NCBI GenBank assembly: GCA_963575745.1
Contig: CAUYUJ010000157.1
Span: forward strand, 62,001-117,449
DNA from: Prorocentrum cordatum
Lineage: Eukaryota
Length of the DNA: 55,449 nucleotides
Direction: 5' to 3'
Shown here: positions 100 through 44,953 of the stretch, one piece after another
Position numbering within the stretch: position 1 is the stretch's first letter
How the letters are laid out: each line of letters starts with the position of its first letter
Notes under the pieces: generated by a model
What the model was told of the DNA's origin: nothing
The model's database searches: none
What the model saw: the letters and a program-made list of their open reading frames with translations, nothing else
Program-made: the position numbers and the translations under genes

Positions 100-2340
100 T
101 TAATTGTGTCTTTGTGTTTTTTCCCTTCCTGACAGCAGCCTTGTACAGTAGGGGCGAGAGAGAGAGGCCATGCTCTCACTGTCCGTTGCGATGAGCGCGT
201 CCAGATTGGCCTGAATTCCGGCCTCTCGTGGATCTGTCTCGGGGCAGGCTCTCGGCTGCACGCAAGAGCGACCCTGGGTAAGAGTGACCTTTGGTGCGCG
301 GCTTTTTGTGGGCCGCGTGGGGACCAAACCTGGGCGTGCAAGCCGTTGCTCCTGCTTCGTTTCAGCCATCTGGGGACCCATCTGTGCCCGCACCAAAGGT
401 CACTCCGGTGAAAGGTCACTCTTACGTCTGGTCGAGGCTCGACTGCCTCATCTTCGCGAAGCCGGTGTCGAAGTACCAAGCGAACGGCAGCGCGGTCGAA
501 AGCAGTAGCTCCAGGCAGCCGACGGCAGCGGTGAAGCGGAACAACTGACGAGACATACCGTGGCTGCGCGCGTCGCAATGCCGAATCTCCGCCTGGCCCT
601 GCCGCGACACTGTCTTTACACACTTTCCCCAAAACAATAATAGACGCCGATGGGAGAGCTGAGGCCGACAACGAAATAGGGGCTACCGTGGCGACACCAC
701 TGCGAGCATGATGTTTCCTTACTTCTTCAAAAGACCCAAGCGCGAGAATCAGGAGCCACCATGGTCATGGAGATCCTGAGCTCGTCGATGTCCTGGCGCG
801 CCTCTTGAACGACAACGATCGAGCTCGATATGCCAGACTTGTGGAAGTATGGTGGCTTTCGGTATAGCCATCCACCCGCGAAACTGAAGGGGGACACGAG
901 CATTCCACGCAACGAAAGCGATCGTACCAGGCTTGGGTGGAGGCCCACCTTCGAATTTGTGGCGGAAGAGCCCTTCAAAGACGCTGAAGAGACCACTCTG
1001 GCGCCGCAGTCGGCCCGATGACAAGATTGACGGTCTTGGTCAGGTGCTCCCAAGACCATCCACACTGCACCAGAACTGCCTCGTGCTACACAATAGCGTG
1101 TGGTGTGGCCGCGTCCAGGCCGTGGCTCCAGCCGAAGGATCGGGCTCCGACTTTCTGAGATCCAGCCATTCTGCCTGTCGGAGAAGAACTTGTGGTCGGT
1201 GTGGCGTTCGCGAAGGAGGCGCGTGATCTTCTTGCCAACGACCTCCATGTTCACTTGGCGGGTGCTCCTGTCTGGAACGACGTGGGGTTGCGCAGAGCCA
1301 CCAGGCGCAGCCGGCACGGGGAAGCGGACCCATTGACCTCCCCCAAAGAGACGGAGAGCCGCCAGCGCCTGCTGCACCCTTTTCCCAACAATGCCAGTCG
1401 CACCTGCGAACTGCACCGAAAATATCGTGTCCATGTCCCCGCCACCAACCGCGAAGCCACTCGCCAGCAGTCTTGGGCCACGCCTCGACGGGGGCGGCCA
1501 CGCCCATCCTGCGCACCATCGTCGGGGCCACCACCTTGAGGATCGTACCGTCCACGTCCTGCTTGAAGGGGGTGGGTGGCATCCATACGTGGCGGCGGAG
1601 GAACACGATTGGCCATGACGAGCTCGTTCCGCGTCTCGTCCATGGAAGCGCGCGTGTCGTCGATTTGCCTGGCGTGGTCAGTGCCCCTGATGTCCAGCGA
1701 GCCAGCCCTTGCAGTGACATTGACGATCTGAGCTTGGATATGGCGCTCGGTGGAGCTCGATGTCGGGCCTAATCGATTTCCCAATGTTTTTTCTGCATAA
1801 GCTGGGACTGTTAACGGGGGGCATCCAGTGCTTTGGTCGCAGCATGGGCGGGAGATGCTGCACCGTCAGCAGATATCAGAAACTGCCTTGGCGTGTCCCG
1901 CCATGAGCTCGCCCAGCTCGGCTTTGATTTCCGTGATCTTGGAAGAGAGCCGTGCACCAATGTGTCCTGTAATGTACAGGGTCCCATGAGTTCGGGTCCG
2001 TGCACTCGTCGCTGTCATCGGATGGGGAACGGCCACACCTGGAACAATCATCACCCCGCCCTTGCGAGCCATCTTTTGGGAGACTGCGACTGGGAGCCAT
2101 TGCTGGCCTTGGCTGCCTTCTTCTTGCACCTGGCGAGGGCATCTGGCATGCGGCTGGCGGCAGACAGGGCAGCGGGAACTGGAGATGCCTCAGTCTGCCC
2201 ACTGCCCCGTCCGCCGAGCTGGACGGCAGGCCACGCTCCACCAGGGAGCTCACCCGAGAACCGAGGCCTGGCCGCGGATCGGCGGTGTCCACTGCGCGCC
2301 CCAGGGAACCGGGCACCTCGAGCCAACATGGCTATACGGA
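100..2340 (-). mobile_element. Decayed LINE (element A): SL-capped 5' end, ORF1 and start of APE endonuclease; low-coordinate boundary approximate
   Basis: Frameshifted APE motifs (IAFVAWNARV near 900-925; IVVVQEAR near 800-820). ORF1 segment VVPDRSTRQVNMEVVGKKITRLL resembles the ORF1 end of the element at 33.6-38 kb. Confidence 0.75.
2317..2340 (-). other. DinoSL relic at the 5' end of element A
   Basis: Minus strand reads TCCGTATAGCCATGTTGGCTCGAG versus canonical DCCGTAGCCATTTTGGCTCAAG: one TA insertion and two substitutions. Confidence 0.8.
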
Positions 2341-2458
2341 ACGAGCAGGAGGCAGGATCGGGGGGATCGGAAGGAAGAGGAGAACACCTCCCTCCCCTCC
2401 CCCCCAATCCCGGGCCGCCGCGGGGCGAGCGGCGCGCGGGCCCGCCCCTCCGCGGCTC

Positions 2459-2523
2459 CTGTGCGCCATCATGGTGCTGGCGGCCAGGTCGTACTCGTCG
2501 TAGTGGCTGTGCAAGAACACGGC
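2459..2523 (-). CDS. CHC: Clathrin heavy chain exon, last in window: AVFLHSHYDEYDLAASTMMAH; 3' boundary uncertain by a few nt
   Basis: Matches [21 protein letters not shown]. AG acceptor 2525-2524; probable GA donor at 2458-2457, but the next exon is not visible so the phase cannot be confirmed. Confidence 0.88.
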
Positions 2524-2559
2524 CTCTCGCGCCACCACCGCCGCCACAGCAACGACCAC

Positions 2560-2820
2560 GGTCATCATCACCACCATCACTTCCATCACCCCCACGACCC
2601 CAATCACCCCGTCACCACCGTCAGCCCCATCGTCCCCATCCTCAGCCTCATCATCTCCGACACCCCCATCATCCCCATCACCCCGATCACCCCATCACCC
2701 CCGTCACCCCCATCATCATGACCGCCACCATCATCAGCAGCAGCAGGAGCAACATCATCATCCTCATCCTCATCATCATCCTCATCATCCTCCTCCTCCT
2801 CCTCCTCCTCCTCCTCCTCC

Positions 2821-2899
<79 letters not shown>

Positions 2900-9085: not shown

Positions 9086-9146
9086 AATGAGAGATCTGGG
9101 CGGGACACCTGCTGGCAGGCCGATCTGTCGAATAGAGCGCCTACTG

Positions 9147-9463
9147 TTGAGTCGGGCACGTCCTCCTACAGGCGGGTCTGAGAGGACAGATTTTGACTAG
9201 TCAAGTCATGCTCGAACGTGGGCAAACATAACCCGAGAATCGTCCCCAGACTATTCTTGGACTATTTTTGAATATTCCTCCCGTAAGATAGAGGGCCTAC
9301 TGGTAAGTCGGGCACGTCCTCCTACAGGCGGGATTGGGAGGACAGACTTTGAATAGTCAAACCATGCTCAAACGTGGGCAAAGGCAACCCGAAAATCGTC
9401 CCCTGACTTTTCTTTGGCTATTTGTTCGAGTTCTCCTCCCGTAGAGGGACACGCCCGACTTGA
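9147..9463 (+). mobile_element. Tandem dimer of the 160-bp MITE; first copy lacks most of its right TIR
   Basis: Two ~156-bp units starting GTCGGGCACGTCCTCCTACAGGCGG near 9151 and 9307. Confidence 0.75.
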
Positions 9464-10498: not shown

Positions 10499-12465
10499 AA
10501 GTGACTTTGAGTCGGGCGTGTCCCCCCACAAGGGAATTTTGGACGGGAAATGCAGCATGCCCCAGAAATGCTAGAAAACAAAATGCTCAAACAATCATCC
10601 TCAGACTATGTTTTGACTATCTTAAAATATTCCTCCTGCGGAGGGACGTGCCCGCGTCGAAGGTAACGTTAAGTCGTGCCTGTCCCCCTACAGGCCGCTT
10701 TTGAACGAAGAATAAGGAATAGTAAAAACAAATAACTTCAGAATGGCCAAACATGCTCAAACAATCGTCCCCAGACTATGTCTTGACTACCTTGGAATTT
10801 TCCTCCCGCAGAGACACGGGCCCGACTCGAAAGGAACTTTAAGTAGGGCCTGTCCCCCTACAGGTCGGTTTTGAACGAAAAACGAGAAATCGGCAAAAAA
10901 ACACACCAAAATTACCAAAAATGCTCAAACAATCGTCCCCAGACTATGTCTTGACTATCTAAGAATATTCCTCCTGCAGAGGGACGGGCCCGACTCGAAA
11001 GTAACTGTAAGTCGGGCCTGTCCCCCTACAGGCCGATGGACGAAAAATCAGAAATCGGCAAAACATACCCCAACATGGCCAAAAATGCTCAAACAATCGT
11101 CCCCAGACTATGTCTTGACTACCTTGGGAATATTCCTTCTGCAGAGGCACGGGCCCGACTCGAGAGTAACTTCAAGTCGGGCCTGTCCCCCTACATACAG
11201 GACGATTTTTGACGAAAAATACAAAATCGGCAAACATACCCCAAAATAGCCAAAAATGCTCAAACAATCGTCCCCAGACTATCTTCTTACTACCTTGGAA
11301 ATATTCCTCCTGCAGAGGGACTTGCCCGCCTCGAAAGTAACTTTAAGTCGTGCCTGTCCCCCTACAGGCCGATTTTGAACGTTTAAAAAAACCAGACTGG
11401 CCAAAACATGCTCAAACAATCGTCCCCAGACTATGTTCTGACTATCTGGAATATTCCTCCTGCAGAGGGACGGGCCCGACTCGAAGGTAACTTTATGTCG
11501 GGCCTGCCCCCCTACAGGCCGATTTTGGAGGAAAAATAAAACATCGTCAAACAAACTCCAAAATTGCCAAAACATGCTCAAAGAATAGTCCCCAGACTAT
11601 GTTTTGACTATCTTGGGAATACTCCTCCTGTAGAGGGACGGGCCCGCCTCGAAAGTAACTTTAAATCGGGCCTGTCCCCCCACAGGCCGATTTTGGAAGA
11701 AAAATAAATAAAATTGTCAAACAATACCCCAGAATGGCCAAGAATGCTCAAAACATCGTCCCCAGACAATGTCTTGACTATCTTGGGAATTTTCCTCCCG
11801 CAGAGGGACGGGCCCGCCTCGAAAGTACCTTTAAGTCCGGCGTGTCCCCCTACAGGGAGATTTTCGACGAAACATTTTTTAAACAAAAAAAACCAAACTG
11901 CCCCAAAATGGGTAAAAAATACTTTAAAATAGTCCCTGGACTATTTTTTTTTTTTATTTTTGGCTACTCCTCCTGCAGGGGGACGGGCCCGCCTCGAACG
12001 TGCCTCGCCGGCGCAGCCCGGCCTCCGGCCAGCGCGCGTGCCCGCCTGCGGGCGCGCCTCGCGGGCCTGTCCCCCTGCAGGGGGATTTTGGACGAAAATC
12101 CAAAAATACCCCAAAAATACTCAAAAGATGCCTAGTAAAGACAAAATGCAAAATACCACAAAAAATACAAAATACACCCCAAAAGTAATCCCCAGACTAT
12201 GTTTTGACGACTACAGGGGGATTTTGGACGAAAATCACAAAATACCCTAAAAATACTGAAAAGACCCAGACTAAATTTGAGACTCAAAATGCGAAAAAGA
12301 TGCTCAAAAATACTCGAAATACTAATACATACCCAAATGCCAAAATTACAAATACCCCAAAGATATTCAAAATATTAAAAAGATACCCAAATATACAAAA
12401 AGTCCCCAGACTATGTTTGGACTACATTTGAATATTCCCACTGTAGAGGGACGGGCCCGACTGAA
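10499..12465 (+). repeat. Satellite of ~10-11 head-to-tail copies of the 160-bp MITE separated by an 8-bp spacer (consensus AAGTAACT)
   Basis: Units start near 10507, 10669, 10839, 11007, 11172, 11341, 11492, 11661 and 11831; junctions read CCCGACTCGA-AAGTAACT-TTAAGTCGGG; internal motif AATCGTCCCCAGACTATG. Confidence 0.9.
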
Positions 12466-12899: not shown

Positions 12900-12919
12900 C
12901 CTCGTTAGAAAAAGAAATG

Positions 12920-13058
12920 CCACATGGACATAAACTTTTGGCGCTCCGCGCGGATTTCTCGGATCCGCGCCGGATCCCCCTCCCTGGCCCGCCAGGGGGG
13001 GGCCCAGCGCGGATCCAAGAAATCCGCGCGGAGCGCCAAAAATCCATGTTCATGTGGT
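12920..13058. repeat. Long imperfect palindrome; related copies at ~15055-15215 and ~55154-55266
   Basis: TTTTGGCGCTCCGCGCGGATTTCTCGGATCCGCGC...GCGCGGATCCAAGAAATCCGCGCGGAGCGCCAAAA; the shared arm is GCGCGGATTTCTTGGATCGGCGCTG. Confidence 0.75.
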
Positions 13059-14336
13059 TTTTTCTTCTCTGACTCGTGGGCGCCTCGTGTGCTGACTGGC
13101 GTTAGGTCGGGCGTGTCCACCTACAGGCGGAGTTTTGGCGACAAATTGAAAATACTTTTTTAAAAATAGCCCCAACGAGTCAACAAAAATAATCAAAAAA
13201 TCGTCCCTTGACTATTTTTTGCACTTTTTGAATTTGCCTCCTCAAGACCTGGAGGAAGACCTCAAGATCTGCGTGACGATCCGGGAGGAGATCTGGGTGA
13301 AGATCTGCGGGGAGATCAAGGGAAACATCTGGGGGGAAAATCTGGGTGAAGATCTGGAGTTTGGAAGACAATCTGGAAACAAATCTGGGGGAAGATAACC
13401 GTGACCATCTTTTAAGCCAGGTTTTCGAGTATCACTCGCACGATGACGGCAGGGCACCAAAGAAAACAATCAATTCTAAACACATGATCTTAGAGTGGGT
13501 CCGCGAGACTGAGTCCGGGCATGCCGTCCTTATTTTTGAACTCCCCAAGTACAGGAATCCGTATTTTTTGTTCGTTTTTTTCAGTTTTTTATTTTTTGCT
13601 GTTTTGTTTCATGTTTTGTTTGTTTCTTCTTTTTTTCACTGCCCCCCCTCTCGCTGTACTAAAATTGTGGGGTGGGGGGAAATGTGCCATTTTTCGTTCG
13701 TATTAAAATGCAATGCGACATCTCCTTCCCCTGAGGCCCCCCTCATAGAAAAGGAAAATCGATCTGCACTTTTTAGGGGGAAAACGAACCTACCTCGCTT
13801 TTGACCACCCTCGCTTCCAAGAGATACCAAGCGATGCCAAACTACGGCCTGTAGTGGTCAGGTCGCTCGACGAGGAGGCGCGTGGTATGACTTGGTTTTT
13901 CCTGGAAGCGAAAGCGGGGTAGGTAATTCACGCTCTGACTTTTGTAATTTACCTCAGGGGGACACGCCCCACTCGACGCTGCTGGGCTTGCGGGGCGGTG
14001 CCGGCTCGTGGGCTCCCCGTGGGCGCCTCGTGCTGGGGCTGGAGGAGTTGGAGGAGGAGGAGGAGGAGGAGGAGGAGGAGGAGATGGAGGAAAATGGAGG
14101 AGGAGGAGGAGGAGGAGGAGGAGGAGGAGGAGGAGGAGGAGGAGGATGGAGGAGGAGGAGGAGGAGGAGGAGGAGGAGGAGGAGGAGGAGGAGGCCCCCG
14201 AGGCCGCCCCGCGGGGCTGGCGCTCTGCGGGGCTTTCGCCGCCGGGTGCCAGCCCGCGGGCGCCGCGCGGGCGCCCCATCGTGCGCGGGCGGGCCCTGCC
14301 GGAGGCACGCGCAGGCTGCACCGCGCGGTGCGAGCT

Positions 14337-14507: not shown

Positions 14508-15956
14508 AGGTTGCACCACGTGGCTGCAACCACGCAGACTGCCTGGCAGCCGCGCAGGCTGCACCGCACGGGTGGCAAAAAGCAGGCCGCAGCACGCAGG
14601 CTGGTTGCACATCGAACTGGCTGCGCCACTCACAGTGAGTGAGGTTGCCACGCGCAGTGAGGCTGCACCATGCACAGACTGCCGCAGAAACGTCGCACTC
14701 CTGGAATGCAAGCAGTCCGTGCTCGCGGCCCCGTGTCGGGATCCACACAAAAATGGGGTGACCCTGAGAGGGGGGCATGAGTCCGATCCTTTGGTGCACC
14801 GATCACTGTCGCGAACAGATGCCCTCGCATGCCCCACCTTATCGGCAACTATCGGGAGCTGCCGGCGGCTGGGGGGGCATCTGTTTTGGGCGGTGCGGTG
14901 CAAACACCGATCGAACTCACACACACCCCGGGGCCCCCACCATTTGCGGGATCCCGACCTTGTGGATGCTGATAAGACTTGGGAAAAGCGCGGGCGGCCA
15001 GGGTTCCCAGGTCCCCAGGCTCCCAGTACGCAGGAAGAACAACGGCAAATACAGAAACTTGTTAAGTTCTGCGCGGATTTCTTGAATCGGCGCTGAACCC
15101 CACTTCCTGGCGCGCTCCGCGCGCCAGGGGCGGCGCGCGCCAAAGGCGGCGCTGGAGGCGCCGCCGGTGGGGCCCAGCGCCGAACCAAGAAACCCGCGCG
15201 GAGCTGACCAAGTTTATGTACATGCCGTTGTTCCCCAATCAGTGCTTGCACTTAAGGGGTCCCAGCGGAAGTTGAGAGATTTGGCGAAAGTCTCCCGCCG
15301 ATTTTGGTAGCAGGCTGGGTTCCCGGGTTCCCGATTCCCGGGTTCCCGGTTATTAGTTCCTGGCCGATTAATTCGGTGGGTTCTGGGTTCCCAGGCTCCC
15401 GGGTTCCCGGTCGATCTCCTTAGCGAAAACCATCCAATGATTGGGGTTTTCTCTGGTGTAAGATCTTCTTCAGCAGTAGCTGGGTCTTGCTGAAAGTGCC
15501 CCGCAGATTTCGATGGGCGGCCATGCTCCCTGGTTCCCATCAGCTCTCGGTGCAGGCCCGTGGCGTGGGCCAGACGACGAGGAGGACTAGAACGGGGGGG
15601 GGATGGGGAAGAGGGGGACAAGGGGGATGAGGAGGGGAGGGGGGAAGGGAAACGAGGCGGAGGCGGAGGCGGAGGAGGAGGACAATGACGATAATAATGA
15701 CGATGATGTTGGCGATGATGATGGTGATGGTGGTGACGATGATAGCGAGGAAGCGCCCCCCAGTGTGCTGTTCCCCAGGCGGAGAAGGAGGAAGAGGAGG
15801 AGGGAGGATGGAGTTGGAAGAGGAGGGAGGGGAGAGAGAGGGAGAGAGGTAGGGAGGGGAGGGGAGGAGAGGGGAGAGGAGGACGACGAGGAGGACGAGG
15901 GGTGGGGGGAGGGGAGAGGGCGGGGAGCGGCAGCAGCAGAGCAGCCCGCGGCGCGC

Positions 15957-22700: not shown

Positions 22701-23296
22701 GGCACTGGTCCCACAGGAAGTGGCGGGGCACCTCCCCCAGAAGCATCTCCCCGCTGTGCATCATCATGACGAGCCAGCGCATCCGACATGGAGGGATCTC
22801 CTCCGAAATATCATTTACCTTTGCCTTTGCCGTTGCCAAGAACACCACCTTTGCTGTTGCCACCGAACGAGCCCTTGTTGCCCACGCCCTTGGGGCCGAA
22901 GCCGTTCCCGTACCAGTAGCCAGGAGGACCAGTGAGCGCCCAGCGCCCATGGACAACATGGCCAGCAGCAGGAGGCAAAGACGGTAGGAGCACAGGCACA
23001 GTTCTTGCAGTACTCGGCGCTGGTACTGTTCTTCTTGCAACCGCAGCTGGGGCACACCATGCCCTTTGGCCCACCACGACGACTGCCTTTTGCCTTTTGT
23101 GACCCATGGCTCCTCAGCTCCTTGCGACTTGATCCAAGGCGCGAGCGAGAAAGAATGGGAAGGTGCCATCGCACTGCAAAAGTAAAGCGGTGAAAGAGAG
23201 AGTTCCTTAAACGGGACGTCTTGAGATATGAGCCAGGCGGGCGGACGCCTGGGAAAGCATTGGGGGCCGAAAATCCCCCTTGCCACAATGCCAAGC

Positions 23297-23316
23297 CCTG
23301 AGCGAAACACTACGGA
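23297..23316 (-). other. Second, decayed SL-like copy directly in tandem
   Basis: TCCGTAGTGTTTCGCTCAGG follows the first SL with no spacer; it keeps the TCCGTAG start and a GCTCAxG end. Confidence 0.6.
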
Positions 23317-23338
23317 CTTGAGCCAACATGGCTACGGA
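23317..23338 (-). other. Near-perfect full-length DinoSL at the 5' end of element B
   Basis: Minus strand TCCGTAGCCATGTTGGCTCAAG is a 21/22 match to TCCGTAGCCATTTTGGCTCAAG; preceded by a (GAG)n array. Confidence 0.93.
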
Positions 23339-23689
23339 GTTCTTCTCCTCCTCCTCCTCCTCCTCGTCCTCCTCCTCCTTCTCATCCTCCTCCTCCTCCG
23401 CCTCCTCCTCCTCCTCCTCCCCTGCCCTTCCTCCTTCTCCTCCTCCTCCGCCTCGTCGGCCTCCGCCTCCGCCTCCTCCTCCTCCTTTTCCTCCTCCTCT
23501 TCCACTTCCTCCTCCTCCTCCTCCTCCTCTTCCTCCTCCTCCATTCCCTTACAAAGAAATATTTCCTGTCGCACCCTGAGGCCTGTCGAAAGGGCGGTCC
23601 GGGCGTTTCGCCTGACACTTCCTCACCACCTATGACCCTGAAGCTTAAACATTGGCAACAGTTTCAGACATGGAGGGCAGGTCGTTTTC

Positions 23690-31485: not shown

Positions 31486-31645
31486 TTAAGTCGGGCCTGC
31501 CCTCCTACAGGATGATTTTGGACGAAAAATGAAACATAGTCAAAAAATGCCCCAAATGGTCAACAGAATGCTCCAAACATCGTCCCCGGACTATCTTGTG
31601 ACTATTTTTGAACATTCCCCCTGTAGAGGGACAGACCCGACTTAA
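31486..31645 (+). mobile_element. Solo 160-bp MITE (TIR TTAAGTCGGG...CCCGACTTAA) with perfect 8-bp TSD TGTTAGCG
   Basis: TGTTAGCG at 31478-31485 and 31646-31653; ~26-bp imperfect TIRs. 8-bp TSDs are typical of hAT-type transposases. Confidence 0.88.
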
Positions 31646-32406: not shown

Positions 32407-32564
32407 TTGAGTCGCGCCTGTGCCTCTTCAGGGGGGATATTGTTCCAAAGCAGCCCAAAAATGGTCGGGGGACGATGTTCTGAACCACGTTTGATCATTC
32501 TCGAATAGTTTTGACATTTATTTTCGTCAAAAAATCCCCCTGTAGGGGGACAGGCCCGACTGAA
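32407..32564 (-). mobile_element. Solo copy of the same MITE in the opposite orientation, perfect 8-bp TSD TCCCAGGG
   Basis: TCCCAGGG at 32399-32406 and 32565-32572; the internal GGGGACGAT is the reverse complement of the family motif ATCGTCCCC. Confidence 0.85.
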
Positions 32565-33145: not shown

Positions 33146-33620
33146 TTCGTGCAGATTTTCGAGCTGGATCGATCTGTGAGGGTCCCCGGGCCGGAAAAGT
33201 GAGCGCGAGCGCCCGTGGTGGCAAAAAATGCAGCGCCAGGATCTCAGGGTCGTCACGACGAGGGGAGGTCTGGGGGAACGGCGGGGCCTTTCTCCCTTCC
33301 TCCCCCGGCCTCCTTCGGTGGGCGCGATCCCTCGGACAGAGGAGGAGGGAGAGGAGGAGGAGGAGGAGGAGGGGGAGGAGGAGGAGGAGGAGAAGGAGGA
33401 GGGAAGGAGGAGGAGGAGGAGGAGGAGGAGGAGGAGGAGGAGGGGGAGGAGGAGAGGAGGAGGAGGAGGAGGAGGAGGAGGAGGAGGGGGGAGGAGGAGG
33501 AGGGGGAGGGGGAGGAGGAGAGGAGGGAGGAGGAGGAGGAGGAGGCAGGAGGAGGAGGAGGAGAAGGAGGAGGAGGAGGAGGGCACGAAGCTCGGCGGGC
33601 AGTTCGATCTGCAGCCTCGC

Positions 33621-36600
33621 CTATGCTTGCATGCGATGCAGCGCGGCCAGTCTCACACCAGCCCGCTGGTCAGCTCCCGCGGCCAGGCCCACGTCCACGC
33701 GGTGCTTCTGGATGTGGTAGCACTGGCACCTGAGGCCGACGGCGTAGATGCACTCCGTGATGGGGCGCTTCGCGTGGTACTGCTCGTCGCCGAGGCCGAG
33801 GAGCTCGGGGCCGTTGCCCAGGGAGTCCGCACCCGCCTCGCCCGCGACCATCGCCCTGAGGATCGGGCAGGAGATGTAGTGCTCGAGAGCGTCCTCCTCT
33901 TCACAGCCGAAGAGGCAAGGGCGCGCGTCGATGACGGCGCTCATGCGACGCGAAGTCGTCCAGCCGTTGACTGCGGTGCGCATCCACGACCACATCCAGG
34001 CAGGGCGGACCTCCGTCAGCTTGCTACGCAGCGGAAGCCACCTCTCGCGCAGCACAGGCAACGGGCACTCGACGCCCCACCTGCGCAGCCGTCGGTGGAT
34101 GGTGGCCACCAGGTCCTCGGGGTACAGCGAGCCACGGAGCGACGCGGCGGCCATGGCCTGGCGCTTGGGTTTCCTGGGAGGAGTGGCCGCAGCCGCCGTC
34201 TTCGTCTCCAGGGTCATCGCCGACTTCGCAATCTTGAGGTACCTGCTCGGGATCGGGACCGCGATCACGTCGAGCGTCGGTCTGGGGATGTCCAGCTGGG
34301 CGTAGGTGTCCGAGATCATGGCGTAGTTATGCACGATCGCCCTCCGCGTCCGCCACCACGGTGGAGACCAGTTGCCCTTGATCACGTCAATCAGCGGGAC
34401 ATGCTCCACTGCAGCTTCATGCAGGTGGTGAAGGTGGGCTTCCCATCCGCGCACCGTGTTCTCCGCCGAGCGCATCATCGCCGCGAGCGTGTAGGGGAAG
34501 AGGCCAATCGGCGACGGGGAGCCACGCCACGCGCTCATCGATAGGATGTCAGCCTTGCGCATGGACGAGGGCGGCAGCCGCAGCAGGCGGTGCAGGGAGG
34601 TGAACTCGACCTTCCAGATGGCAGGCACGATGAAGTAGAACTGCGCGAGGTACGAGAGGCACGGCAGCGCGTTGATGTTGCACGCGCGGGCCGCAAGGCT
34701 GGTGGCCATGCCTGTGCGCGCCAGCTCCCAGCAGCGGGTCCACCATTTCCCCGCCGCAGCCTTCCAGATGCCGAAGTCCGCGACGCCTGGGCCCAGGTGA
34801 GTCCCCAGGTACTTGGCCGTGGAGTCGACGCGGAAGCCCAGCCAGCGGGGGACCTCCTCAGCGAGGAAAGACTTGACGTTCAGCAGTGTGTCCTCCGTGA
34901 GCTCCTCCCACAGCGGGACCAGCACGCACTTGTGCAGGGCCAGCTGCAGGTTGAAGGCGAACTCTATAGAGACGAAGGTGTGGTCTATGCTAGGGAGGGC
35001 GACAGCGTTCTTGATCAGCATCCCGAGATCGTCGGCGCAAGCCGTGAGAAATCCATGCTCAGCAATCGCAGCCAGCAGCGCACGGATGGGCGCATCCATG
35101 GCCAGGCGCCAGACCGTGCCAGAGAGCGGGCACCCTTGCATGATGCCGCACAGGAGCGCGAACAGCGGCTCGAGCTCCGCACTAGTGCCCTCGGCGCGGA
35201 AGGAGCTGAAGGCGAGGCAGTTGCTGTAGAGCGCCTCGATCACGTTGCGGAAGCCCAGCGGGACCCCGAAGCGCGGGAGGACCTTCTCGATAACTTCCCT
35301 GAAGAGCGAGGGGAAGGCCTGGCGGAAGTCGAACGACAGGAACATGGGGCGGCGGGTCGCAGCGCCAGGAAGGAGGCCCCCCCTACGGCATTCTGCGTCC
35401 AAGAGCGGGATGTGGTCGACGAAGCGCCGCCCAGCAGTGAAGCCCTTCTGCTCGGGTGAGGTAGATGATGTGGCGATGGGCTGGAGCCCTCGATCTGCGC
35501 AGGCCGCAATCAGCTTGGCGTCGCAGTTCTTCAGGGAAAGGGTGCGCACCGTGGAGGCCGTGCGCGTGCAGGAGTCGGGGACGTCGTCCTCCTCCGTGCC
35601 CTTCGGCACGCAGATGAAGATCGACCAGTTGAGGTCGAGCGGGGCTACGCCGTCGTTGAAGAGGGCTTCCATGAGCCCCTGGAGATGCTGCAAGGCTCCA
35701 GGGCTGCGGCGCCATGCTGCGTACGTGAGCTGATCTGGTCCCGCAGCGCTCGGCGGTGCCCTACTGGCCGCCCGTTCCAGGTCGTGAAGAGCAGGTTGAG
35801 GAAGTTCCACCACAGGGTTCCTTGGTGCGTGCTTGTCCAGGAAGGTGTCCAGTGCCTTGAGCTGTTCGGGATTCGGCACCTTCGCAAAGATCTCACCCCA
35901 GTAGTTCGCCACAGTCGCCTTCATGCCCGCTGGGTCAGAGACCACGTGCTGCGCCACCTGCGAGTCCTTGGCGGCGCACGGTGCGGAATCCACGCGCAAG
36001 CCCGAGAGGATCATGCGGCGCCGCCGCGGGACCCAGAGCTGCGCATGTCTGGCGGCCTTGCGTTCAACCCTCCGCCAGGCTGCGCTGTCGCGCACGTTGG
36101 CCGTCCGAGCTGCTGCCTCCGCCGCCTGCCTTCGCAGGGAGTGCACCCGCTCGGCGATAGCGTCGAAGTTGGTGGCAAAGCTGTGGGGGTCCACGAGGCG
36201 CACGGTGCCATCGGTAATGTGGAGGTGGGCGGCCAGCGCAGGGCAGGAGTCGAGAAGCCTACCTGCCAGGACAGCGTCCTGTCGCCAGACTGCTCGCGCC
36301 GCCGATTTGAAACCCATGCACGAGGTCTCGACCGTGGAGTCCTTGACGTGGAGGGAGAAGTTGGTCCTCAGCTGTTCATCACGTACACGTCGCGCAGCAA
36401 GCTTCATGCACTGCTTCGCTGCTCTCCAACGACCTTCCGCCGTTTCCCCCTCCAGGGCGCAGTGGTCCAGCATGAGCGTGTAGGTCTCGGGGTACTTCCT
36501 GTGGTTGAAGAGGTGCGTCGGGATTGGCTGCTCGTCTCGTGGGACATGGCGTGCGGCGGTGATCTGCAAGACGAGGGGCGCATGGTCACTGATGCCCGCC

Positions 36601-37655
36601 TCGGAGAGCTCCATCGCATCCCTCGCCGTGGTAAGGATCGTTGAGACCGAGAGCATGGCGTGCGCGTCGATGCCCAAGAAGATGCGGTCAATCGTGGACA
36701 GCTGCTTGCAGGACTTGTCGTAGTGGGTCGGCCATTGAGACTCAACCTCCATGGCTGCAGCGAATAGTCGGCGCCGCGCAGGTTGCCGAAGTTGGCAGCG
36801 GTGATCAGGTCGGAGGCGCCACGCCGTAGCGTCAGAGGGTGCTCGTTGACTGACTGGAGGGCGGGTAGCTATGTTGAAGTCACCGACCCCCAGAAAGATG
36901 CGGTGCAACGAGTCTCGGCGCGCCCACGCCAGGCCGCTGGACCAAGTGCGCTGTATAGCAGAGAACTCGTGCGGCTTGAGGTCGCAGTTGTGGATGTTGA
37001 AGATCTGCATGCTGTACTTGCCCGAGCTGTCGGTGATCGTGAGGAGCGCCGCGCGGCCGACCGCCACTATGTCGAAGCGGTAGGGCGGCAGAGCAGGTGT
37101 GGAATTTCGTGAACTTGACCGGGTGTAGTTCGGTAGTGACGTGGAAGTCGTGGGGGGACGTCGTGTACTTGACCAGGTGTCGGAGCGACTTGCTGTCGTC
37201 GGTGAAGAGGAGGTTCGTGTACTTGACCAGGTGTCTTGCGTCGGTAAGGATGCAGCAGGGGGCGAGGCACACTCAGGGGGTCCCACCCGCCGCGCCACGC
37301 CCCCGCATCCCAGAGATTCGGCTCTGGGTCCATCCGCCCTTGGACTTTCATCGACGTGTCGAGGGACAAGAAAGGCGACCCCGCCCACAGCAGCGGAGGG
37401 GCCAGGCGAGAGGAAGCTCAAGTACTTCTGCGGCTGCGACTGGAGGAAGATCCTGAGGGCGTCCTCGGAGCCGTGGACCTCCTGCACGGCGATGATGGCG
37501 TTGACCTTCATGTATGAGGCGAGCAGTGCCAACTTGCGTCTGCGCAGCCTCGCGTCCGAGTGGAGCAGGCCACGGGCATTCCACACGACCAGGTGCAGAC
37601 CGCGGAAGCCATGTCGATCGCCAGGGGGACGCCAAGGCGCCCACAGTGGGGTGCT
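33621..37655 (-). CDS. LINE ORF2: APE endonuclease, reverse transcriptase and C-terminal CCHC-like knuckle (~1340 aa, no stops); start codon undefined
   Basis: APE: VVWNARGLL, AVQEVHG, GVGDFN, WPTHY, TIDRIF, ISDHAPL. RT: SAAGPDQL, ICVPKG, RTLSLKNCDAKL, QKGF, SFDFRQAFPS, GIMQGCPLSG, ACADDLG, KYLGTHLG. C-terminus: CLFGCEEEDALEHYISC. The N-terminal ~380 aa of the track's 1726-aa ORF are repeat and ORF1 read-through. Confidence 0.93.
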   Translation of the reverse strand, partial: STPLWAPWRPPGDRHGFRGLHLVVWNARGLLHSDARLRRRKLALLASYMKVNAIIAVQEVHGSEDALRIFLQSQPQKYLSFLSPGPSAAVGGVAFLVPRHVDESPRADGPRAESLGCGGVARRVGPPECASPPAASLPTQDTWSSTRTSSSPTTASRSDTWSSTRRPPTTSTSLPNYTRSSSRNSTPALPPYRFDIVAVGRAALLTITDSSGKYSMQIFNIHNCDLKPHEFSAIQRTWSSGLAWARRDSLHRIFLGVGDFNIATRPPVSQRAPSDATAWRLRPDHRCQLRQPARRRLFAAAMEVESQWPTHYDKSCKQLSTIDRIFLGIDAHAMLSVSTILTTARDAMELSEAGISDHAPLVLQITAARHVPRDEQPIPTHLFNHRKYPETYTLMLDHCALEGETAEGRWRAAKQCMKLAARRVRDEQLRTNFSLHVKDSTVETSCMGFKSAARAVWRQDAVLAGRLLDSCPALAAHLHITDGTVRLVDPHSFATNFDAIAERVHSLRRQAAEAAARTANVRDSAAWRRVERKAARHAQLWVPRRRRMILSGLRVDSAPCAAKDSQVAQHVVSDPAGMKATVANYWGEIFAKVPNPEQLKALDTFLDKHAPRNPVVELPQPALHDLERAASRAPPSAAGPDQLTYAAWRRSPGALQHLQGLMEALFNDGVAPLDLNWSIFICVPKGTEEDDVPDSCTRTASTVRTLSLKNCDAKLIAACADRGLQPIATSSTSPEQKGFTAGRRFVDHIPLLDAECRRGGLLPGAATRRPMFLSFDFRQAFPSLFREVIEKVLPRFGVPLGFRNVIEALYSNCLAFSSFRAEGTSAELEPLFALLCGIMQGCPLSGTVWRLAMDAPIRALLAAIAEHGFLTACADDLGMLIKNAVALPSIDHTFVSIEFAFNLQLALHKCVLVPLWEELTEDTLLNVKSFLAEEVPRWLGFRVDSTAKYLGTHLGPGVADFGIWKAAAGKWWTRCWELARTGMATSLAARACNINALPCLSYLAQFYFIVPAIWKVEFTSLHRLLRLPPSSMRKADILSMSAWRGSPSPIGLFPYTLAAMMRSAENTVRGWEAHLHHLHEAAVEHVPLIDVIKGNWSPPWWRTRRAIVHNYAMISDTYAQLDIPRPTLDVIAVPIPSRYLKIAKSAMTLETKTAAAATPPRKPKRQAMAAASLRGSLYPEDLVATIHRRLRRWGVECPLPVLRERWLPLRSKLTEVRPAWMWSWMRTAVNGWTTSRRMSAVIDARPCLFGCEEEDALEHYISCPILRAMVAGEAGADSLGNGPELLGLGDEQYHAKRPITECIYAVGLRCQCYHIQKHRVDVGLAAGADQRAGVRLAALHRMQA

Positions 37656-38010
37656 AAATCCACTCGGTGTTGTCCTCCATTGAGAAGGACTTCTTGAACT
37701 GTGTGTTGATGGACTCCCTGTCGATGTGCAGCCTAGCGACCATGTCTGGGTTCCACCTGATGATAGTGTCAGTGTAGCGGGATTCGCCCATCTCGAGCTT
37801 GGCAACCTTGACGCCCTGGGAGGTGACGATGCCACGGGCCCGCTGAGCACTGAAAGACAGATCAGGATGAGCTTCTGCCAACAGGGCCGCGAGCCTCCTT
37901 GACTGGATCTCCATTCGAACTTGCTGCGGTGACTTGTCGGGCGAGATGTACAGCGGGACGGTGCCTCCGCCGACGCTGTGGGCACAGAAGGCCCGCCATC
38001 CGTTCCTGCT
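37654..38010 (-). pseudogene. C-terminal remnant of LINE ORF1 (element C)
   Basis: ...GGTVPLYISPDKSPQQVRMEIQSRRLAALLAEAHPDL...DNTEWI* ends just upstream of the APE motif and resembles ORF1 segments of elements A and D. Confidence 0.75.
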
Positions 38011-38859
38011 AGGAGGAGGAGGAGGAGGAGGAGGAGGAGGAGGAGGAGGAGGAGGAGGAGGAGGAGGAGGAGGGGGGGGGGGGAGGGGGAGAGGGGGAGA
38101 GAGGAGGAGGAGGAGGAGGGGAGGGTCTGGGGCACCTCTCCCCGAGGAGTTCTAGCTTGCGGAGGCGGAGGCGAGAGCCCTGGCCTTGGGAGGGGAATCC
38201 TCCTCCTCCTCCTCCTCCTCCCTCCTCCTACCTCCTCCTCCTCCTCCTCCTCCCTCTCCTCCTCCTCCTCCTCTCCTCCTCCTCCTCCCTCCCCCCTCCC
38301 CCCCTCCTCCTCCTCCCCTCCCCTCCTCCTCCCCTCCTCCTCCTCCTCCTCCTCCTCCTCCTCCTCCTCCCTCCTCCTCCTCCTCCTCCTCCCCTTGCTC
38401 CTCCTTCTCCTCCTCCTCCTCCTCCTCCTCCTCGGGTCACGGGGCTGAATCCCACCCCTGCGGTTCCCAGACTCTTCGGCCTGCTGTTCCTTTTCGTTTT
38501 TTTTGGGGGTGGGTCGTTCGATCTTTTTTTGTGTGGGAGGAGCTCTGTCTGAATCGTTTCCGTTTCCGTTTCCTGTCTTCTCGTGCGTCGGTGGGGCACG
38601 GCCAGGAATGCGCCTGGGGCTTCGGGGGAGGGGGGCCTTGAGAGGGGGGGGGCGCCGTTTGGTCACGCTTTCGATTGTGCGACCCGTCGCACAATCAGAT
38701 TCGTGACCAGGGGGGAGAGTTTGCAACCTGGGGGGGGGGGGGGGGGGGGGGCGAAAAAAAACGTTACAAATCCAACATATGTTCTTGTTGTTTCCCCCCA
38801 CCCCCCTCCCCCTTCCTCATCCCCTCCCCTCTTTCCTCCGGTCCTTAAGCATCACAAAC

Positions 38860-40595: not shown

Positions 40596-41199
40596 GCATT
40601 GTATAGGAGATTATGGGGAGGGGGGGAGAGGGGGGCATCGATGGAGGGGCGGAGAGGATGCAGGCTGGCAGACCGAAGTCTGTATGGACACACGAGAACG
40701 AGAGCGAAACCATCCACAACCGCCGACGCACTAAAATGTCAAAAACGCAGGGGGGGGATTCGGCCCCGAAACCCTGCGAAGGGGGGCTCCTCCAGGAGGA
40801 GGAGGAGGAGGAGGAGGAGGGGGAGGAGGAGGAGAGGATCGGATCGACTCGGCTGAAGCGAACGTCGAGAACCTCGGCGTTGTCTGGGGGCCCCGCTGTA
40901 GGGGCCACACGGTTGGAGCATGATGCTCAACAAAACAATTTGGCAGTAGTTGTATGCAGCCTTGCCCGGCGGCTGGAAAATCACCTAGGCCCCAACCAAC
41001 AAACCAAGCGGGGGACTCACCAAGTATGAGCCCCCGTGATGACAACTTCATTGTTCAAACGAGACCCTCCCACACCATTTCCCCTCAATCCCCCCCCCCC
41101 CGTCATCCTGTGGGAGGAGGAGGACGAGGAAGAGGAGGAGGAGGACGAGGAAGAGGAGGAGGAGGAAGAGGAGGAGGAGGAGGAGGAGGGAAAAGGGGA

Positions 41200-44100
41200 T
41201 CCTTCCCCTCCTTCACCTCTATCCCCTCATCCCGATGCCACCGTTTTCACCCCAGGGCGTGCCACTCCCCCAAAAGAGACGCCGAAGTGCCCGGGAAGGC
41301 CCCGAGGTACTTGGCGCGCCCCGCGATCGAGAACTCGCGCCAGGAAGAGGCAACCACGGAAAGCAGGAACGGGTTTGGGCGACGTTGGTAGGGTTGACGG
41401 CATCCTAGAGCAAGGCGACCACGCACTTGCGGGGTTTAAGAGCACGGCGAGCTCCTCAGCGGCCGCGAAGGGCTCCGCAACGCGGCCCCGCAACTCGAAC
41501 TTGCTGCGCAGAAGCCCCAGGTCGTCAGCGCACGCGCACGCGTTGCCGAGGGGCGGGTCGGGAGTGCCATCGGCGTTCTCGACGAAGGAGGCGATGTGGC
41601 GCGCCAGAAGACCCGCTGCAATCGAGGACGGGGCGAAGCACGCGGCGCGGAAGAGGTTGAACAGGCCATCAGGGATGCCGAAGTGTTTGGGCGACACGAA
41701 CAGCCGGGCCCCGCCCAGCGACAGGGGCGCGGCGGCGAAGCCGGAACTGATGAAGACCAGGAAGTGGTTGACGCGGTCGAACAGGGGGCCAGCGCGGCGC
41801 ATCTCAGCGTCGAGGCGAACGACGCGCTCGACGAAGTTGCGGCTCACTACGAAGCCCCGCTGCACTACATGAGCCCGTGCTGTTTTTCAGGGGCTGGTTG
41901 GCACCGCCCGCAATGGCGTTGATGTCCGCGTACTTTAGCGAGAGAGGGCGCGCGCGACCTCGGGGGGCCCGTCCGCGGTGAGCCCCCCCGCGAAGATGTC
42001 GCCCTTCGGCGGGGAGGCGAAGCCGGACTCGCTCAGGCCCCGCGGGATCGACAGGCCCGAGCAGAAACAAATAATGTCCTCCAGGATGTCGAGGAAGTGG
42101 CCGCGGGCGACCCGCGCGCTGCGCAGCGGGCGGCTGGGGCCAGGCGCCGACGGATTGGCGCCGGGGAGGAAAGCTTTGATCTGGAGCTTGCCAGGGGCGC
42201 CGACGTCAAATGGGGTCGCCGCGAGGCGCGCGCTGCCCGACGCGCTGCCGCGCCTCGGCGTCGTCGACCACCTTCGCGGCGAAGACGGGTTTCCAGCGCG
42301 CGCGCGGGGCGTTGGCCGCGGCGCGCCCCTCCCCGGCAATCTCCGCGGGGCGGCCCCGGCGGCCCCAGGGCTTGATTCCCTGGGGGGCAAGACGGCGCCT
42401 CCAAGGGGCGGGGCGCGAATGTCTGGGGAGCTCGAATGAATATGCGGAGCTCCCCGAGGGAATGGCGCCGCCCTGCCTCCCGGGGCTTCGCGCGGCGCTC
42501 CGAGCCGGAGGGCGCCAGCGAGCCTCGAAGTCGTGGCGCAGGGAGACCGAGGGGCTGGCGAACAGGGCGGGGCTGTCGATGGCAATGACGCCGTCGGTGG
42601 CGAGCACGAACTGCTCGCCGAGTTCGGCGGCGGACCGGGGGCGCCCGGCGAGGTGGTGTCCCAGCGTCGGACAGCTCTGGAGATCGAGCGCGCGGCGAGG
42701 GCGCGTCGAGGCGGCCAGGGCGGGCGGCGTCGCCCGAAGACAGGCGAGCCCAAGTCGTCGCGAACCATGCGAGCGGCGTCTGCCGCGAGGAACTTGCGGG
42801 GCCGCCAGCGGTTCTCGATGGGGGCGCGGGCGGCGTTGGAGGCGCCAACGAGCAGCTGCAAGTGGCCGACGTAGCGCGGGCCGCGGAAGATCGCGGGCGG
42901 CATGGCCTCCTCGGCGGGCGGCGCGCGCGGCGTGATGCCAGGGGTGAGAGCGACGACGGCGCGGTCGCTGATGCGCTTGTCCGACAGGGCGGCGTCGACC
43001 GGCGAGGTGAGCTCCTGCGCGGCATGATGGGGGCCCAATGAAGGCGCTGTCGATCGCGGGCGCCGCGCGGTCAGACTCGTTGACCCCGGTCGCGGCACAT
43101 CGGCGCCCGCGCGCTCCAGCTGACGAGGGCGGCAAGCGACGAGCCTCCAGGCGCCTGCCATGGCGCCCGCGGGCGGTCGGGGGCCCCGCGCGGCGGCCCC
43201 GGCGTCCGAGGAGAGGGCCTGGAAGGAGGAGAGGACGGCCGCGCGGTCGATGTCGTGGAACTGCTGGAGCTCGAGGGCTTTCTCATTCCACGGGGGCGGC
43301 GGGGCCCGCCTGGCCGCGGGCGCCGGCGGGCGGCGGGCGTGGCCTTGCTGTGGATCTCGACCTTGCTGCGGGTGGCCCTCAACTGCAGGTTGGGGCGTTG
43401 GTGTTGGAGCAACGACTTGGGCTTCTTGCGCTGGATCTAAGTGCGGATTTGCTTCGGGGACTTGTCGCCGTCGAGGTGGATGTCAGCGCGCTGCCCAGCG
43501 GCGCCGGCGGTGACGAATCGCCCTCGTTTCCCCGCGGCATTTCGAAGGCCCCGCTGCAGAGCGAGGGCGCGGGGCGCAGCGACGTCGCGGGCGCCTTCGA
43601 CTTGAGGGGCGAAGCGGCGGGCAGGCTCGCGGCCGCGAAGTTCGATGCGATCAGACTGAAGGCCGGCACCTCCGACCCACTCCTGCGGGCCATTTGGAAA
43701 GATGTCGGGCGAGACGAGGCGCCGGCAGCCAACAGTGAAAATCGCGGGGTCGGGGGCGCGGCCCCATTTGGCGAGGCGAGCGGGGTCCACGACATGGGAA
43801 TCTGAGACCCGGCGAGGGCGAGGGTGTCGCGCATCTGGTCGATCTGCTGTCGCGTGCGCTTCTGCTCGGCGGACATTCGGTCCTGCTCGCGGCGGGCGCG
43901 GGCGACGGCGTCGCGAAGGTTGCCCGCGCGGCGCTCGGTCTGGAGGACTTGCTGCTGGAGGAGGGCGCGGAAACCCTCGCGGGACTGCTCGTGGGAACGG
44001 CCAGACTGGGCGCGGAATGCGTCGGCGGCGATGGTGATCTGCTCCTGCGCGAGGCTCTGGTAGGCGGTGTCCAGCTCTGCAGGGGGGCCAGCTGGACGAG

Positions 44101-44953
44101 CTGCCGGGTCGGGGCCCGGCGCGGGATGCACTTCGCCAGGGAGAGCACGCGCGGCAGGATGGGCGGCCCCTCGGCAATGTTCCTGCGATGGGGAGGCGGG
44201 GGACTTCTCCAGATCAGCCGCCAGCTTCCATGGATCTCGTCCTTGGAGAGCGCCGCGGCGGGGCCGTCGCCCGACGGGCCGGCGGGGGCGGGGCGAGCTG
44301 CAGAGCGTGCCGCGCGGGAGGTTCGCGGCGCAACGCGGCCCGATGAACGGCCAGCAGGGACGACGTCGTCGCGCTGCTGAGCAGCGAGGGGCCCACGGGC
44401 AACTTCGGCGCGGGGGCGGTCTTCGCAGCGATGGGCACGGTCGCGGTGTCCAGCGCGATCGCGATGTCCAGTTTTCGGACGGCGGCGGCGGCGTGAGGCT
44501 TGCGATGGCGGGAGGCGGCGGGATGCGGGGCGCTCGTTGCCGCTGGAGCTGCTGCTGCTGGCCACTGTTGCGATCTGGCCTCGATGGGCGAGCTGCGGCC
44601 GACGTCCGCGATGGGCTGCTGACTGCCGGCGGCCAGGGGCGCAGCGCCGCAAAAAAATGGCGGGGGCGGCGCGTTGGCGAGCGCGGCGGGGATATGGATG
44701 CTCGGAGCGGGGCACAGCGGAGCGATCTGGATGCTTGGAGCGGGGCTCGACGAGACGACGCGGGCGCCCGGGGCGGCGCTCGGCGAGACACAGATATGGA
44801 AGGCGGCCTGCGCCGCCAGAGAAGTAAGCAGGAATGGGCGGCAGTACGTCTCTGGGCGCAGCTGCAAGAATGCGAGGACTGACCGCGGATTAGCGATATT
44901 CATGTCCATAAGGGGGGCCCAAGAAAGAAATCTTGAGCCAAAATGGGCGCGGA
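41200..44953 (-). mobile_element. Heavily decayed, very GC-rich LINE (element D), related to element C, SL-capped; low-coordinate boundary approximate
   Basis: ORF1 remnant DIHLDGDKSPKQIRT*IQRKK; APE end (IDSAFIG, ISDRAVV); RT remnants SAPGP, LSLKYADINAIA, QRGFVVSRNF, ACACADDLG (41532-41521), PGHFGVSFG. Confidence 0.85.
44932..44953 (-). other. DinoSL relic at the 5' end of element D
   Basis: Minus strand TCCGCGCCCATTTTGGCTCAAG: exact 15-nt core CCATTTTGGCTCAAG (44946-44932), 19/22 overall; preceded by a CT-rich tract. Confidence 0.88.

Follow-up and report, generated by a model that had tools for sequence, protein, structure and literature searches.

Relics of the dinoflagellate spliced leader (DinoSL) were reportedly recognized by Slamovits and Keeling in 2008 as marks of retroposed host genes, the outcome of a process named 'mRNA recycling'. 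In that process, as described in the available text of two later studies, a retro-copied transcript carries a DNA-encoded leader at its 5' end (PMC5585692, PMC7245778). Long interspersed nuclear elements (LINEs) joined to spliced-leader (SL) sequence are found in other trans-splicing hosts: SLACS, CZAR and CRE in trypanosomatids, and NeSL-1 in nematodes. These SL-gene-specific LINEs carry a restriction-enzyme-like endonuclease, which lies C-terminal to the reverse transcriptase (RT). SLACS and CZAR insert between nucleotides (nt) 11 and 12 of the mini-exon, according to the accessible portion of one source (PMC5814959). Here we describe a 55,449-nt window of the Prorocentrum cordatum genome (contig CAUYUJ010000157.1, positions 62,001 to 117,449) with five LINEs, called A to E, of which A, B and D each begin at a DinoSL relic.

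The resemblance to mRNA recycling is close. The leader is DNA-encoded, in sense orientation and at the 5' end in A, B and D, and likewise in three LINEs from environmental DNA (loci L192, L180 and L186); further relics, as repeated rounds would leave, are present in B, L192, L180, L186, L127 and L171. The difference is that the copied transcript here would be the retrotransposon's own mRNA, so that a mobile-element lineage would inherit the leader as its 5' terminus. We read A, B and D as full-length insertions of APE-type non-LTR (long terminal repeat) retrotransposons from at least two lineages, whose RNA template probably carried the host's 22-nt leader at its 5' end, and we give this reading, including the cycle proposed below, a probability of roughly 70%. 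The finding extends dinoflagellate mRNA recycling to the retroelements themselves.

All relic and element coordinates refer to the minus strand of the window. Scanning both strands by dynamic programming, we found three sites within five edits of the leader on the minus strand and none on the plus strand, with edit distances of 1 (B), 3 (D) and 4 (A). In 40 block-shuffled windows the mean count per strand was 0.575 at five edits or fewer, 0.0625 at four or fewer and 0.0125 at three or fewer; a separate comparison with the 21-nt leader core gave two sites at three mismatches or fewer in the window and no match across 100 shuffles. Because three sites were observed where 0.06 per strand are expected at four edits or fewer, the three relics are real, and chance matching is excluded. 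All three lie in sense orientation at the exact junction between flank and LINE, and no other relic occurs on either strand. No relic was found near the 5' ends of C and E at six edits or fewer, nor was a second relic found in A or D.

The relics of A (2317-2340) and B, including the second relic of B (23298-23338), have a T>G change in common (CCATGTTGG), and the metagenomic locus L136 has it as well (at about position 1227); it was not found in the viral database IMG/VR. The same variant has been reported once, as a non-canonical DinoSL in a Polarella transcript, in the available text of PMC7245778. It may represent a minor variant of the host leader or SL RNA.

The five elements are APE-type non-LTR retrotransposons, as indicated by their RT, APE-type endonuclease, 5' truncation and 3' tail. 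Element C provides the reference copy: its 1,731-amino-acid (aa) frame matches RVT_1 in Pfam (9e-11), and it has paralogs 82-92% identical, named as Prorocentrum cordatum. A profile of the C family matches the open reading frame 2 (ORF2) of D at 43011-41256, the C-terminal third of that ORF being missing, and E at 47240-46065; C and D both have the 'CADD' motif in the RT. Element A runs from the leader through about 270 nt into coiled-coil ORF1-like frames and the start of an endonuclease ('FVAWNARV') before the window ends, and its RT falls beyond the edge; it matches C by tblastx (E 3e-11), and its region 730-1677 matches an ORF of the metagenomic locus L133 (phmmer, E 3e-3). Element B is instead related to the intact metagenomic LINE L192 (tblastn, E 3e-6 for the endonuclease and 5e-21 for the RT), and one of its fragments has a weak Pfam match to RVT_1 (5e-4). 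The homology of B and of A, C and D thus falls into what are, on sequence comparison, at least two deeply different LINE lineages, one L192-like (B) and one A/C/D-like.

Signs of the endonuclease in the window copies come from aligned motifs ('WNARG/WNARV' at the start in C and A, 'SDHAP' in C); Pfam called no endonuclease family in them. The window ORFs scanned against Pfam comprised 29 long ORFs, 70 shorter minus-strand ORFs and 80 further ones, with six plus-strand ORFs included; 24 of the 174 minus-strand ORFs of at least 90 aa were outside the scan, mostly frames overlapping the long ORF of C. Only C and the B fragment gave RVT_1 in these scans, Pfam being insensitive to these LINEs. No ORF scanned matched DNA_methylase. 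Pfam gave no match for an RNase H in B, and PDB sequence searches with B and L192 also returned nothing. No similarity was found among the window elements at the DNA level, and neither long direct repeats flanking the elements nor LTRs were found.

Trinucleotide arrays are numerous in the window yet make up a small part of it, and all five LINE 5' junctions touch one. In A and D the leader is directly preceded by a (CTC)n-type, C/T-rich flank, and in C (at about 38009) and E (at about 47395) a flank of the same kind borders internal sequence; the flank of D is a simple repeat ending ...ctcctctttctcctcttcct directly before the leader. Target-site duplications are unreadable in such microsatellite targets. 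Full-length copies thus start at the leader and truncated copies at internal sequence, in the same target context, as complete and incomplete reverse transcription of a capped RNA would give. All five LINEs lie on the minus strand. Feature coordinates are collected in Table 1.

Table 1. DinoSL relics, LINE bodies and flanking repeats in the 55,449-nt window
Feature	Position	Strand	Description
Element A DinoSL relic	2340-2317	-	TCCGTATAGCCATGTTGGCTCGAG; 24 nt, 2-nt insertion and 2 substitutions, T>G variant CCATGTTGG
Element B terminal DinoSL relic	23338-23317	-	TCCGTAGCCATGTTGGCTCAAG; 22 nt, 1 substitution (T>G)
Element B second, decayed DinoSL relic	23298-23316	-	TCCGTAGTGTTTCGCTCAG; 6 edits, exact TCCGTAG start, abuts terminal relic
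Element D DinoSL relic	44953-44932	-	TCCGCGCCCATTTTGGCTCAAG; 22 nt, 3 substitutions
A body, cut by window edge	1-2316	-	5' untranslated region (UTR), ORF1-like coiled-coil frames ~2070-1150, endonuclease start ~920; frameshifted
A 5' flank	2341-2420	-	G/A-rich then C/T-rich low-complexity DNA; ...ctcctcttccttcc...cctgctcgt up to leader
B body	18519-23297	-	ORF1-like coiled coil ~22810-22330, endonuclease 21494-20692, RT 20150-18519; many frameshifts
B 5' flank	23339-23542	-	(GAG)n microsatellite
Element C	33621-38009	-	5'-truncated LINE from ORF1 C-terminal region; intact endonuclease-RT ORF2, 'TACADDLG'; no leader
C 5' flank	38010-38125	-	(CTC)n
C 3' tail or flank	33339-33582	-	~240 nt (TCC)n, starts 40 nt past ORF2 stop
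D body	41190-44931	-	5'UTR, ORF1-like coiled coil ~44050-43780, decayed ORF2 (profile positions 231-850), 'CACADDLG'
D 3' repeat	41113-41189	-	(TCC)n
Element E	45954-47395	-	LINE 5'-truncated within RT (profile positions 750-1149); no leader
E 5' flank	47396-47590	-	(CTC)n-rich low-complexity DNA

An earlier note on this DNA, made from the sequence alone, had proposed that A, B and D start at near-full, sense-strand leaders, with low-complexity DNA upstream and ORF1 downstream, and that the truncated C and E have none. The three relics are at the places it claimed, with the letters as it gave them, and exceed the shuffle expectation; the simple-repeat flanks, the coiled-coil ORF1-like frames and the leaderless C and E agree with its description. 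Its division into two lineages is borne out by homology (B versus A, C and D), but the RNase H by which it had characterized B received no match. The wider statement that every retroelement with an intact 5' end begins at an SL holds for the three full-length copies of this one window, from which it was drawn.

The flanks also bear on whether the leader is simply target DNA, as it would be if the elements had inserted site-specifically into SL RNA genes. LINEs of this kind exist in other trans-splicing lineages. In SLACS, CZAR, CRE and NeSL-1, however, the leader is a split target site within SL gene arrays, whereas here the entire 22-nt exon stands upstream, no SL sequence is present at the 3' sides, and the surroundings are microsatellite or unique DNA that differs between copies. 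Among 109 upstream and 129 downstream flanks none of the common sequence expected of SL genes was found, and the LINE-linked leaders have no flank in common with other loci, as SL RNA genes would have. The endonuclease, moreover, is APE-type and N-terminal to the RT (Exo_endo_phos in L192). We therefore reject SL-gene-targeted insertion, which the flanks contradict, as extremely improbable.

A metagenome scan with the exact leader 22-mer starting with T returned at least 121 stretches, representing at least 120 loci. The loci listed have a GC content of 0.38-0.69, include two or three duplicates and are mostly short, 14 of them having at least 2.5 kb downstream of the leader. The clearest LINE among them, L192, consists of an exact leader, 148 nt, a single intact ORF of 2,348 aa with Pfam matches to Exo_endo_phos (1.6e-5) and RVT_1 (1.7e-4), a short 3'UTR and a run of nine A residues. 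L180 matches L192 (phmmer, 3e-20), and L186 shows similarity in the endonuclease (E 3e-5) and contains the motifs VETK, GDFN and IDY. Weaker cases are L133 and L127, with ORFs that have matches in the ORF1-like regions of C and A, together with L171 and L178. The last of these (Ga0194131_10010946) has a cytosine-5 DNA methylase ORF (PF00145, 2.7e-36) 2.5 kb downstream of its exact leader and a second relic (4 edits) 240 nt upstream of that leader, and the contig ends before any RT. Leader-capped LINEs are thus present outside the window, in at least two lineages, as a minority of leader relics.

Other searches added no LINEs. A relaxed Pfam search of 24 'dark' ORFs behind leaders gave no match, a purpose-built endonuclease profile recovered no extra loci, and a search of IMG/VR with the LINE proteins found no relative. 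Scanning IMG/VR for the 21-mer leader gave 119 stretches, nearly all from AT-rich giant-virus contigs and so useless for LINEs.

Methylase-bearing LINEs have a described counterpart. SymbioLINE-Dnmt elements are LINEs of dinoflagellates in which both the 5' and the 3' UTR are conserved, a poly-A tail is lacking and ORF1 is a cytosine-5 DNA methyltransferase (DNMT); the available text on them does not mention a spliced leader (de Mendoza 2018, PMC5890265). The window elements have coiled-coil ORF1-like frames and no DNMT, and L178 alone among the metagenomic loci has such an ORF, which makes it a candidate SymbioLINE-Dnmt-like element with a leader.

Comparison of L192 with L180 indicates where element homology begins. 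The two are 36% identical in amino acids across the endonuclease, their upstream flanks are unrelated, and their leaders agree at 22 of 22 positions. Past the leader, their 5'UTRs align in three collinear blocks starting 8-23 nt beyond it, the best being 80% identical over 46 nt (E 9e-6); none of 200 shuffles reached the best local score. The earlier note had suggested aligning the 5' ends of full-length copies; in this comparison, which involves two copies only, homology does start at the leader and the flanks are unrelated. That the leader is the true 5' terminus of full-length LINE copies is supported by these alignments, by L186, by the flank pattern of the window and by the second relics described below. 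It is likewise supported that full-length copies of more than one lineage, also outside this genome, would stem from leader-capped RNA.

The same junction allows us to weigh template switching, in which the RT would jump at the end of copying from LINE RNA to SL RNA or a capped mRNA, so that the leader would be joined on when the DNA copy is made. Template switching is a known property of LINE RTs, as in U6/L1 chimeras, and one metagenomic locus could be such a chimera. This is L156 (Ga0126342_10025619, 9.4 kb), where an exact leader is followed directly by an ORF with a CBM_20 starch-binding domain and by near-gapless long frames for 5 kb, with the RNase_H, Exo_endo_phos and RVT_1 of a LINE 5.6 kb farther on. 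It could be a chimeric retrocopy or a LINE with an unusual 5' coding part. The junction, however, is always at the exact 3' end of the 22-nt exon with no SL-intron sequence, the leader occurs on full-length elements only and never on the truncated C or E, and the junction with the UTR is at the same position in the diverged L192 and L180. We consider template switching quite improbable. In a further locus, L135 (MPMD02399860.1), the relic has a Helitron-like ORF (Helitron_like_N 1e-25, PIF1 8e-41) on its upstream side in the same sense.

Several copies carry a second, older leader. The terminal and second relics differ from the canonical leader by 1 and 6 edits in B, 0 and 4 in L192, 0 and 5 in L180, and 0 and 5 in L186. 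The second relics start about 183 nt (L192), 144 nt (L180) and 29 nt (L186) past the end of the terminal leader, those of L192 and L180 at homologous places, while about 0.003 relics at five edits or fewer would be expected per 250 nt at the window shuffle rate. Truncated relics lie directly behind the leader in L127 and L171. Since adjacent leaders in one copy are equally old as measured from insertion, the older must have decayed earlier, while it was passed on within a 5'UTR, and the terminal leader was new when the copy inserted. The second relics thus point to leaders added more than once, onto transcripts that started upstream of the older leader. Such repeated capping would agree better with read-through transcription and trans-splicing than with an internal promoter active at base 1.

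A leader captured once would instead be inherited as a selected part of the 5'UTR, serving as an initiator or core promoter (TTTT box) or as a translation signal, with an internal promoter starting at the first base and no trans-splicing in each cycle. The T>G variant common to A, B and the second relic of B speaks for this, as it could mean an inherited, element-borne leader and not fresh host leaders, and so does the conserved place of the leader relative to the UTR in L192 and L180; in addition, the available text of Song 2017 proposes the relic motif TTT(T/G) as a retrogene promoter (PMC5585692). On the other hand, the leaders head both the B/L192-like and the A/C/D-like lineage, so that several captures would be needed anyway, and the TTTT run has been lost from the relics of A and B. 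Selection on the terminal copy alone must also be assumed, because second relics decay while terminal ones are intact, and the tandem and nearby relics indicate repeated addition of leaders to transcripts begun upstream of an older one. We judge single capture unlikely. The form of the leader-capping reading in which the leader is re-created in each cycle and replaces a promoter is plausible; it is here that the claim of the earlier note that the SL 'defines and regenerates' the 5' end stays conditional, the alternative being an inherited, conserved 5' end.

It remains to consider coincidence, in which the relics are chance matches or belong to ordinary host retrogenes and the LINEs are merely adjacent. 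Relics are common, more than 20% of Symbiodiniaceae genes carrying them according to the available text of Song 2017 (PMC5585692), and most relics in the metagenome sample are not beside a recognizable LINE. Against this, chance matching is excluded by the shuffles, each of the three relics in the 55 kb coincides with a LINE 5' junction, and there is no room for a host gene between the leader and the ORF1-like frame of A (about 270 nt) or the endonuclease-RT ORF of L192 (148 nt). Both versions, chance and a host retrogene beside a LINE, were rejected as very improbable, the latter being already contradicted for L192.

A number of observations nevertheless weigh against leader capping or limit its reach. 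Trans-splicing of the LINE transcripts is deduced from DNA alone. Because the metagenomic LINEs were picked by an exact leader, their perfect terminal leader is partly forced, and B alone gives an unbiased contrast between terminal and second relic (1 versus 6 edits), which is weak by itself. The earlier note had proposed counting the fraction of relics that abut LINEs; this proves to be a minority, from three firm cases to seven with the weak ones among the at least 120 metagenomic loci listed, and among the listed loci with at least 2.5 kb downstream it is 3 of 14, or 4 of 14 with L178. A leader scan of genome contigs found a recognizable LINE at none of eight loci. With Pfam alone the contrast is not significant: an RT or endonuclease was found at two loci for the 97 ORFs of at least 130 aa downstream in the sense of the leader and at one locus for 147 control ORFs (147 of the 150 antisense-downstream and sense-upstream ORFs, the 46 upstream-antisense ORFs being left out). 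The control case was an RVT_1 in L164 alone, in a LINE 5 kb upstream of the leader. In the window, the flank of B is (GAG)n and not (CTC)n, its 3' end (between about 17000 and 14040) and target-site duplications are not definable, and Pfam recognized no host gene on either strand.

Weighing these points, we still favor leader-capped LINE RNA and propose the following cycle. A genomic copy would be transcribed from upstream by host read-through; as the upstream flanks differ between copies, it would lack a promoter of its own lying a set distance away. The host leader would then be trans-spliced to an AG acceptor at the 5' boundary of the element, in the simplest case the AG with which the DNA-encoded relic ends, so that the old leader would be exactly replaced. 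Consistent with that choice, most LINE copies keep a single leader and do not pile up the usual truncated relics of 15 nt, which suggests that the AG ending the encoded leader is the usual acceptor. The capped mRNA would be translated, and the element's own endonuclease and RT would carry out target-primed reverse transcription into simple-repeat targets, as judged by the (CTC)n or (GAG)n flanks and the (TCC)n 3' ends. Complete copying would yield a copy beginning with the leader, and an early stop a 5'-truncated, leaderless one, which is the pattern of A, B and D versus C and E. Occasional use of an acceptor farther upstream would leave an older relic to decay in the 5'UTR, the pattern of B, L192, L180 and L186.

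We put forward a broader version only tentatively and at somewhat less than even odds. In it, LINEs without an internal promoter ride on host read-through, and host trans-splicing cuts them out, caps them and re-creates their 5' end in each generation, with the encoded leader supplying the AG acceptor and the pyrimidine-rich microsatellite the polypyrimidine tract; the same machinery, directed at simple repeats, would drive the massive gene retroposition of dinoflagellates.

Other selfish elements have met the same difficulty of obtaining a precise 5' end. The 5' ribozyme of R2 is a comparable solution that cuts the 5' end. The Pr77 promoter and hepatitis delta virus-like ribozyme of L1Tc/ingi likewise release a precise 5' end from host co-transcripts where the genome is transcribed polycistronically or by read-through, using self-cleavage and an internal promoter that yield an RNA without a leader, as set out in the available part of PMC5814959, whereas here the end would be set, and the cap provided, by host trans-splicing. 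A further selfish replicon that carries the host's leader is dinoRNAV, a positive-sense single-stranded RNA (+ssRNA) virus with DinoSL at its 5' end (Levin 2017, cited in the available text of PMC9651163); it is an RNA virus and not a retroelement, and its leader has been interpreted as mimicry.

The context of other leader relics was examined in the metagenomic and genome-contig loci. Among the matches listed, a microsatellite lies within 3 nt upstream of the leader at 20 of 111 loci, compared with 10 of 1,117 control positions, an approximately 20-fold enrichment. The upstream microsatellites in L120-L247 include (CA)n, (TCA)n, (TA)n, (TAC)n, (CT)n and (GACA)n, and the same palindromic satellite (ggaccccggggtcctttaaaa) precedes the leaders of L120, L133, L136 and L203, whose downstream sequences are unrelated. 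The microsatellites and the common satellite upstream of leaders suggest that retroposition is aimed at simple repeats.

Leaders were also encountered in viral and bacterial records. Many exact DinoSL copies were found among the IMG/VR loci (L001-L119), in giant-virus metagenome-assembled genome (MAG) contigs of 15-26% GC, such as IMGVR_UViG_GVMAG-M-3300023179-82, -3300023174-52 and -3300023179-2. AT-rich 12-mers recur just upstream of them (ATATAAATTTTA 16 times, TTTACTAAACCA 13 times). At 122 unique giant-virus sites the first ATG is a median of 48 nt downstream and opens an ORF of at least 100 aa in 83% of cases, versus 7% at controls. Most of these ORFs are orphans; the others include DUF4116 repeat proteins, CCCH and RING fingers and NADAR. 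This pattern looks like a genome-encoded host leader placed before viral genes, and no paper on such leaders appeared among the literature matches listed.

Three GC-rich IMG/VR contigs of 3.8-5.3 kb (L067, L047 and L049) are different in layout. L067 and L047 each contain a pair of ORFs, about 770 and 360 aa long, the leader being at the very contig end in L067, and L049 has a single ORF of 1,091 aa just past the leader; the ORFs of L047 and L049 have no Pfam match. In their arrangement, L067 and L047 bring to mind the +ssRNA viruses of dinoflagellates for which DinoSL has been reported. An exact 22-nt DinoSL also lies inside L241, a 5.3-Mb record titled as an Ekhidna sp. MAG chromosome, beside ORFs with no Pfam family; it may reflect mis-assembly, contamination or transfer.

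The window contains other repeats as well. A tandem array of about 170 bp in 7.8 copies occupies 10580-11872, with related single units at 9132-9443, 31486-31645 and 32407-32564, on both strands. Palindromic, self-inverted units of 130-200 bp (ccgcgcggatttcttgg...) at 12907-13068, 15037-15233 and 55150-55284 are hairpin repeats or resemble miniature inverted-repeat transposable elements, one of them being within the 3' region that possibly belongs to B.

As far as our literature search reaches, the earlier note was right that trans-spliced, leader-first LINEs are not a described general strategy. LINE copies with a leader at their 5' end are not described in the available text of the Polarella, 15-genome and P. 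cordatum genome papers, of the 2017, 2018 and 2025 retrogene papers, of a 2024 review, or of the SymbioLINE-Dnmt and viral horizontal gene transfer papers. According to the P. cordatum genome paper (PMC10666404), which tabulates gene models having leader-bearing transcripts, the model with the most such transcripts is one of 'unknown function'. The nearest observation, in the available text of Song 2017, is that the Gene Ontology term 'RNA-dependent DNA replication' is enriched among leader-tagged genes, which was read there as activity of the retroposition machinery (PMC5585692). That enrichment of reverse-transcription genes, reported without the interpretation offered here, favors leader-capped LINEs.

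If this reading is correct, trans-splicing would join internal promoters and self-cleaving ribozymes as the third known means by which a LINE sets its 5' end under read-through or polycistronic transcription. Counts of 'retrogenes' based on leader relics would include LINE copies, and the leader would serve conveniently to mark full-length LINE insertions and to indicate how old they are. The finding would also bear on the question of which RT drives mRNA recycling in dinoflagellates, an enzyme that a 2018 review, in its available text, treats as unknown while favoring Ty1/copia (PMC6050394). LINEs that have the leader tag of retrogenes, 5' truncation and simple-repeat insertion sites, taken together with retrocopies enriched for an upstream microsatellite, point to target-primed reverse transcription by LINEs, and hint that LINEs aimed at simple repeats drive the recycling of dinoflagellate mRNA.

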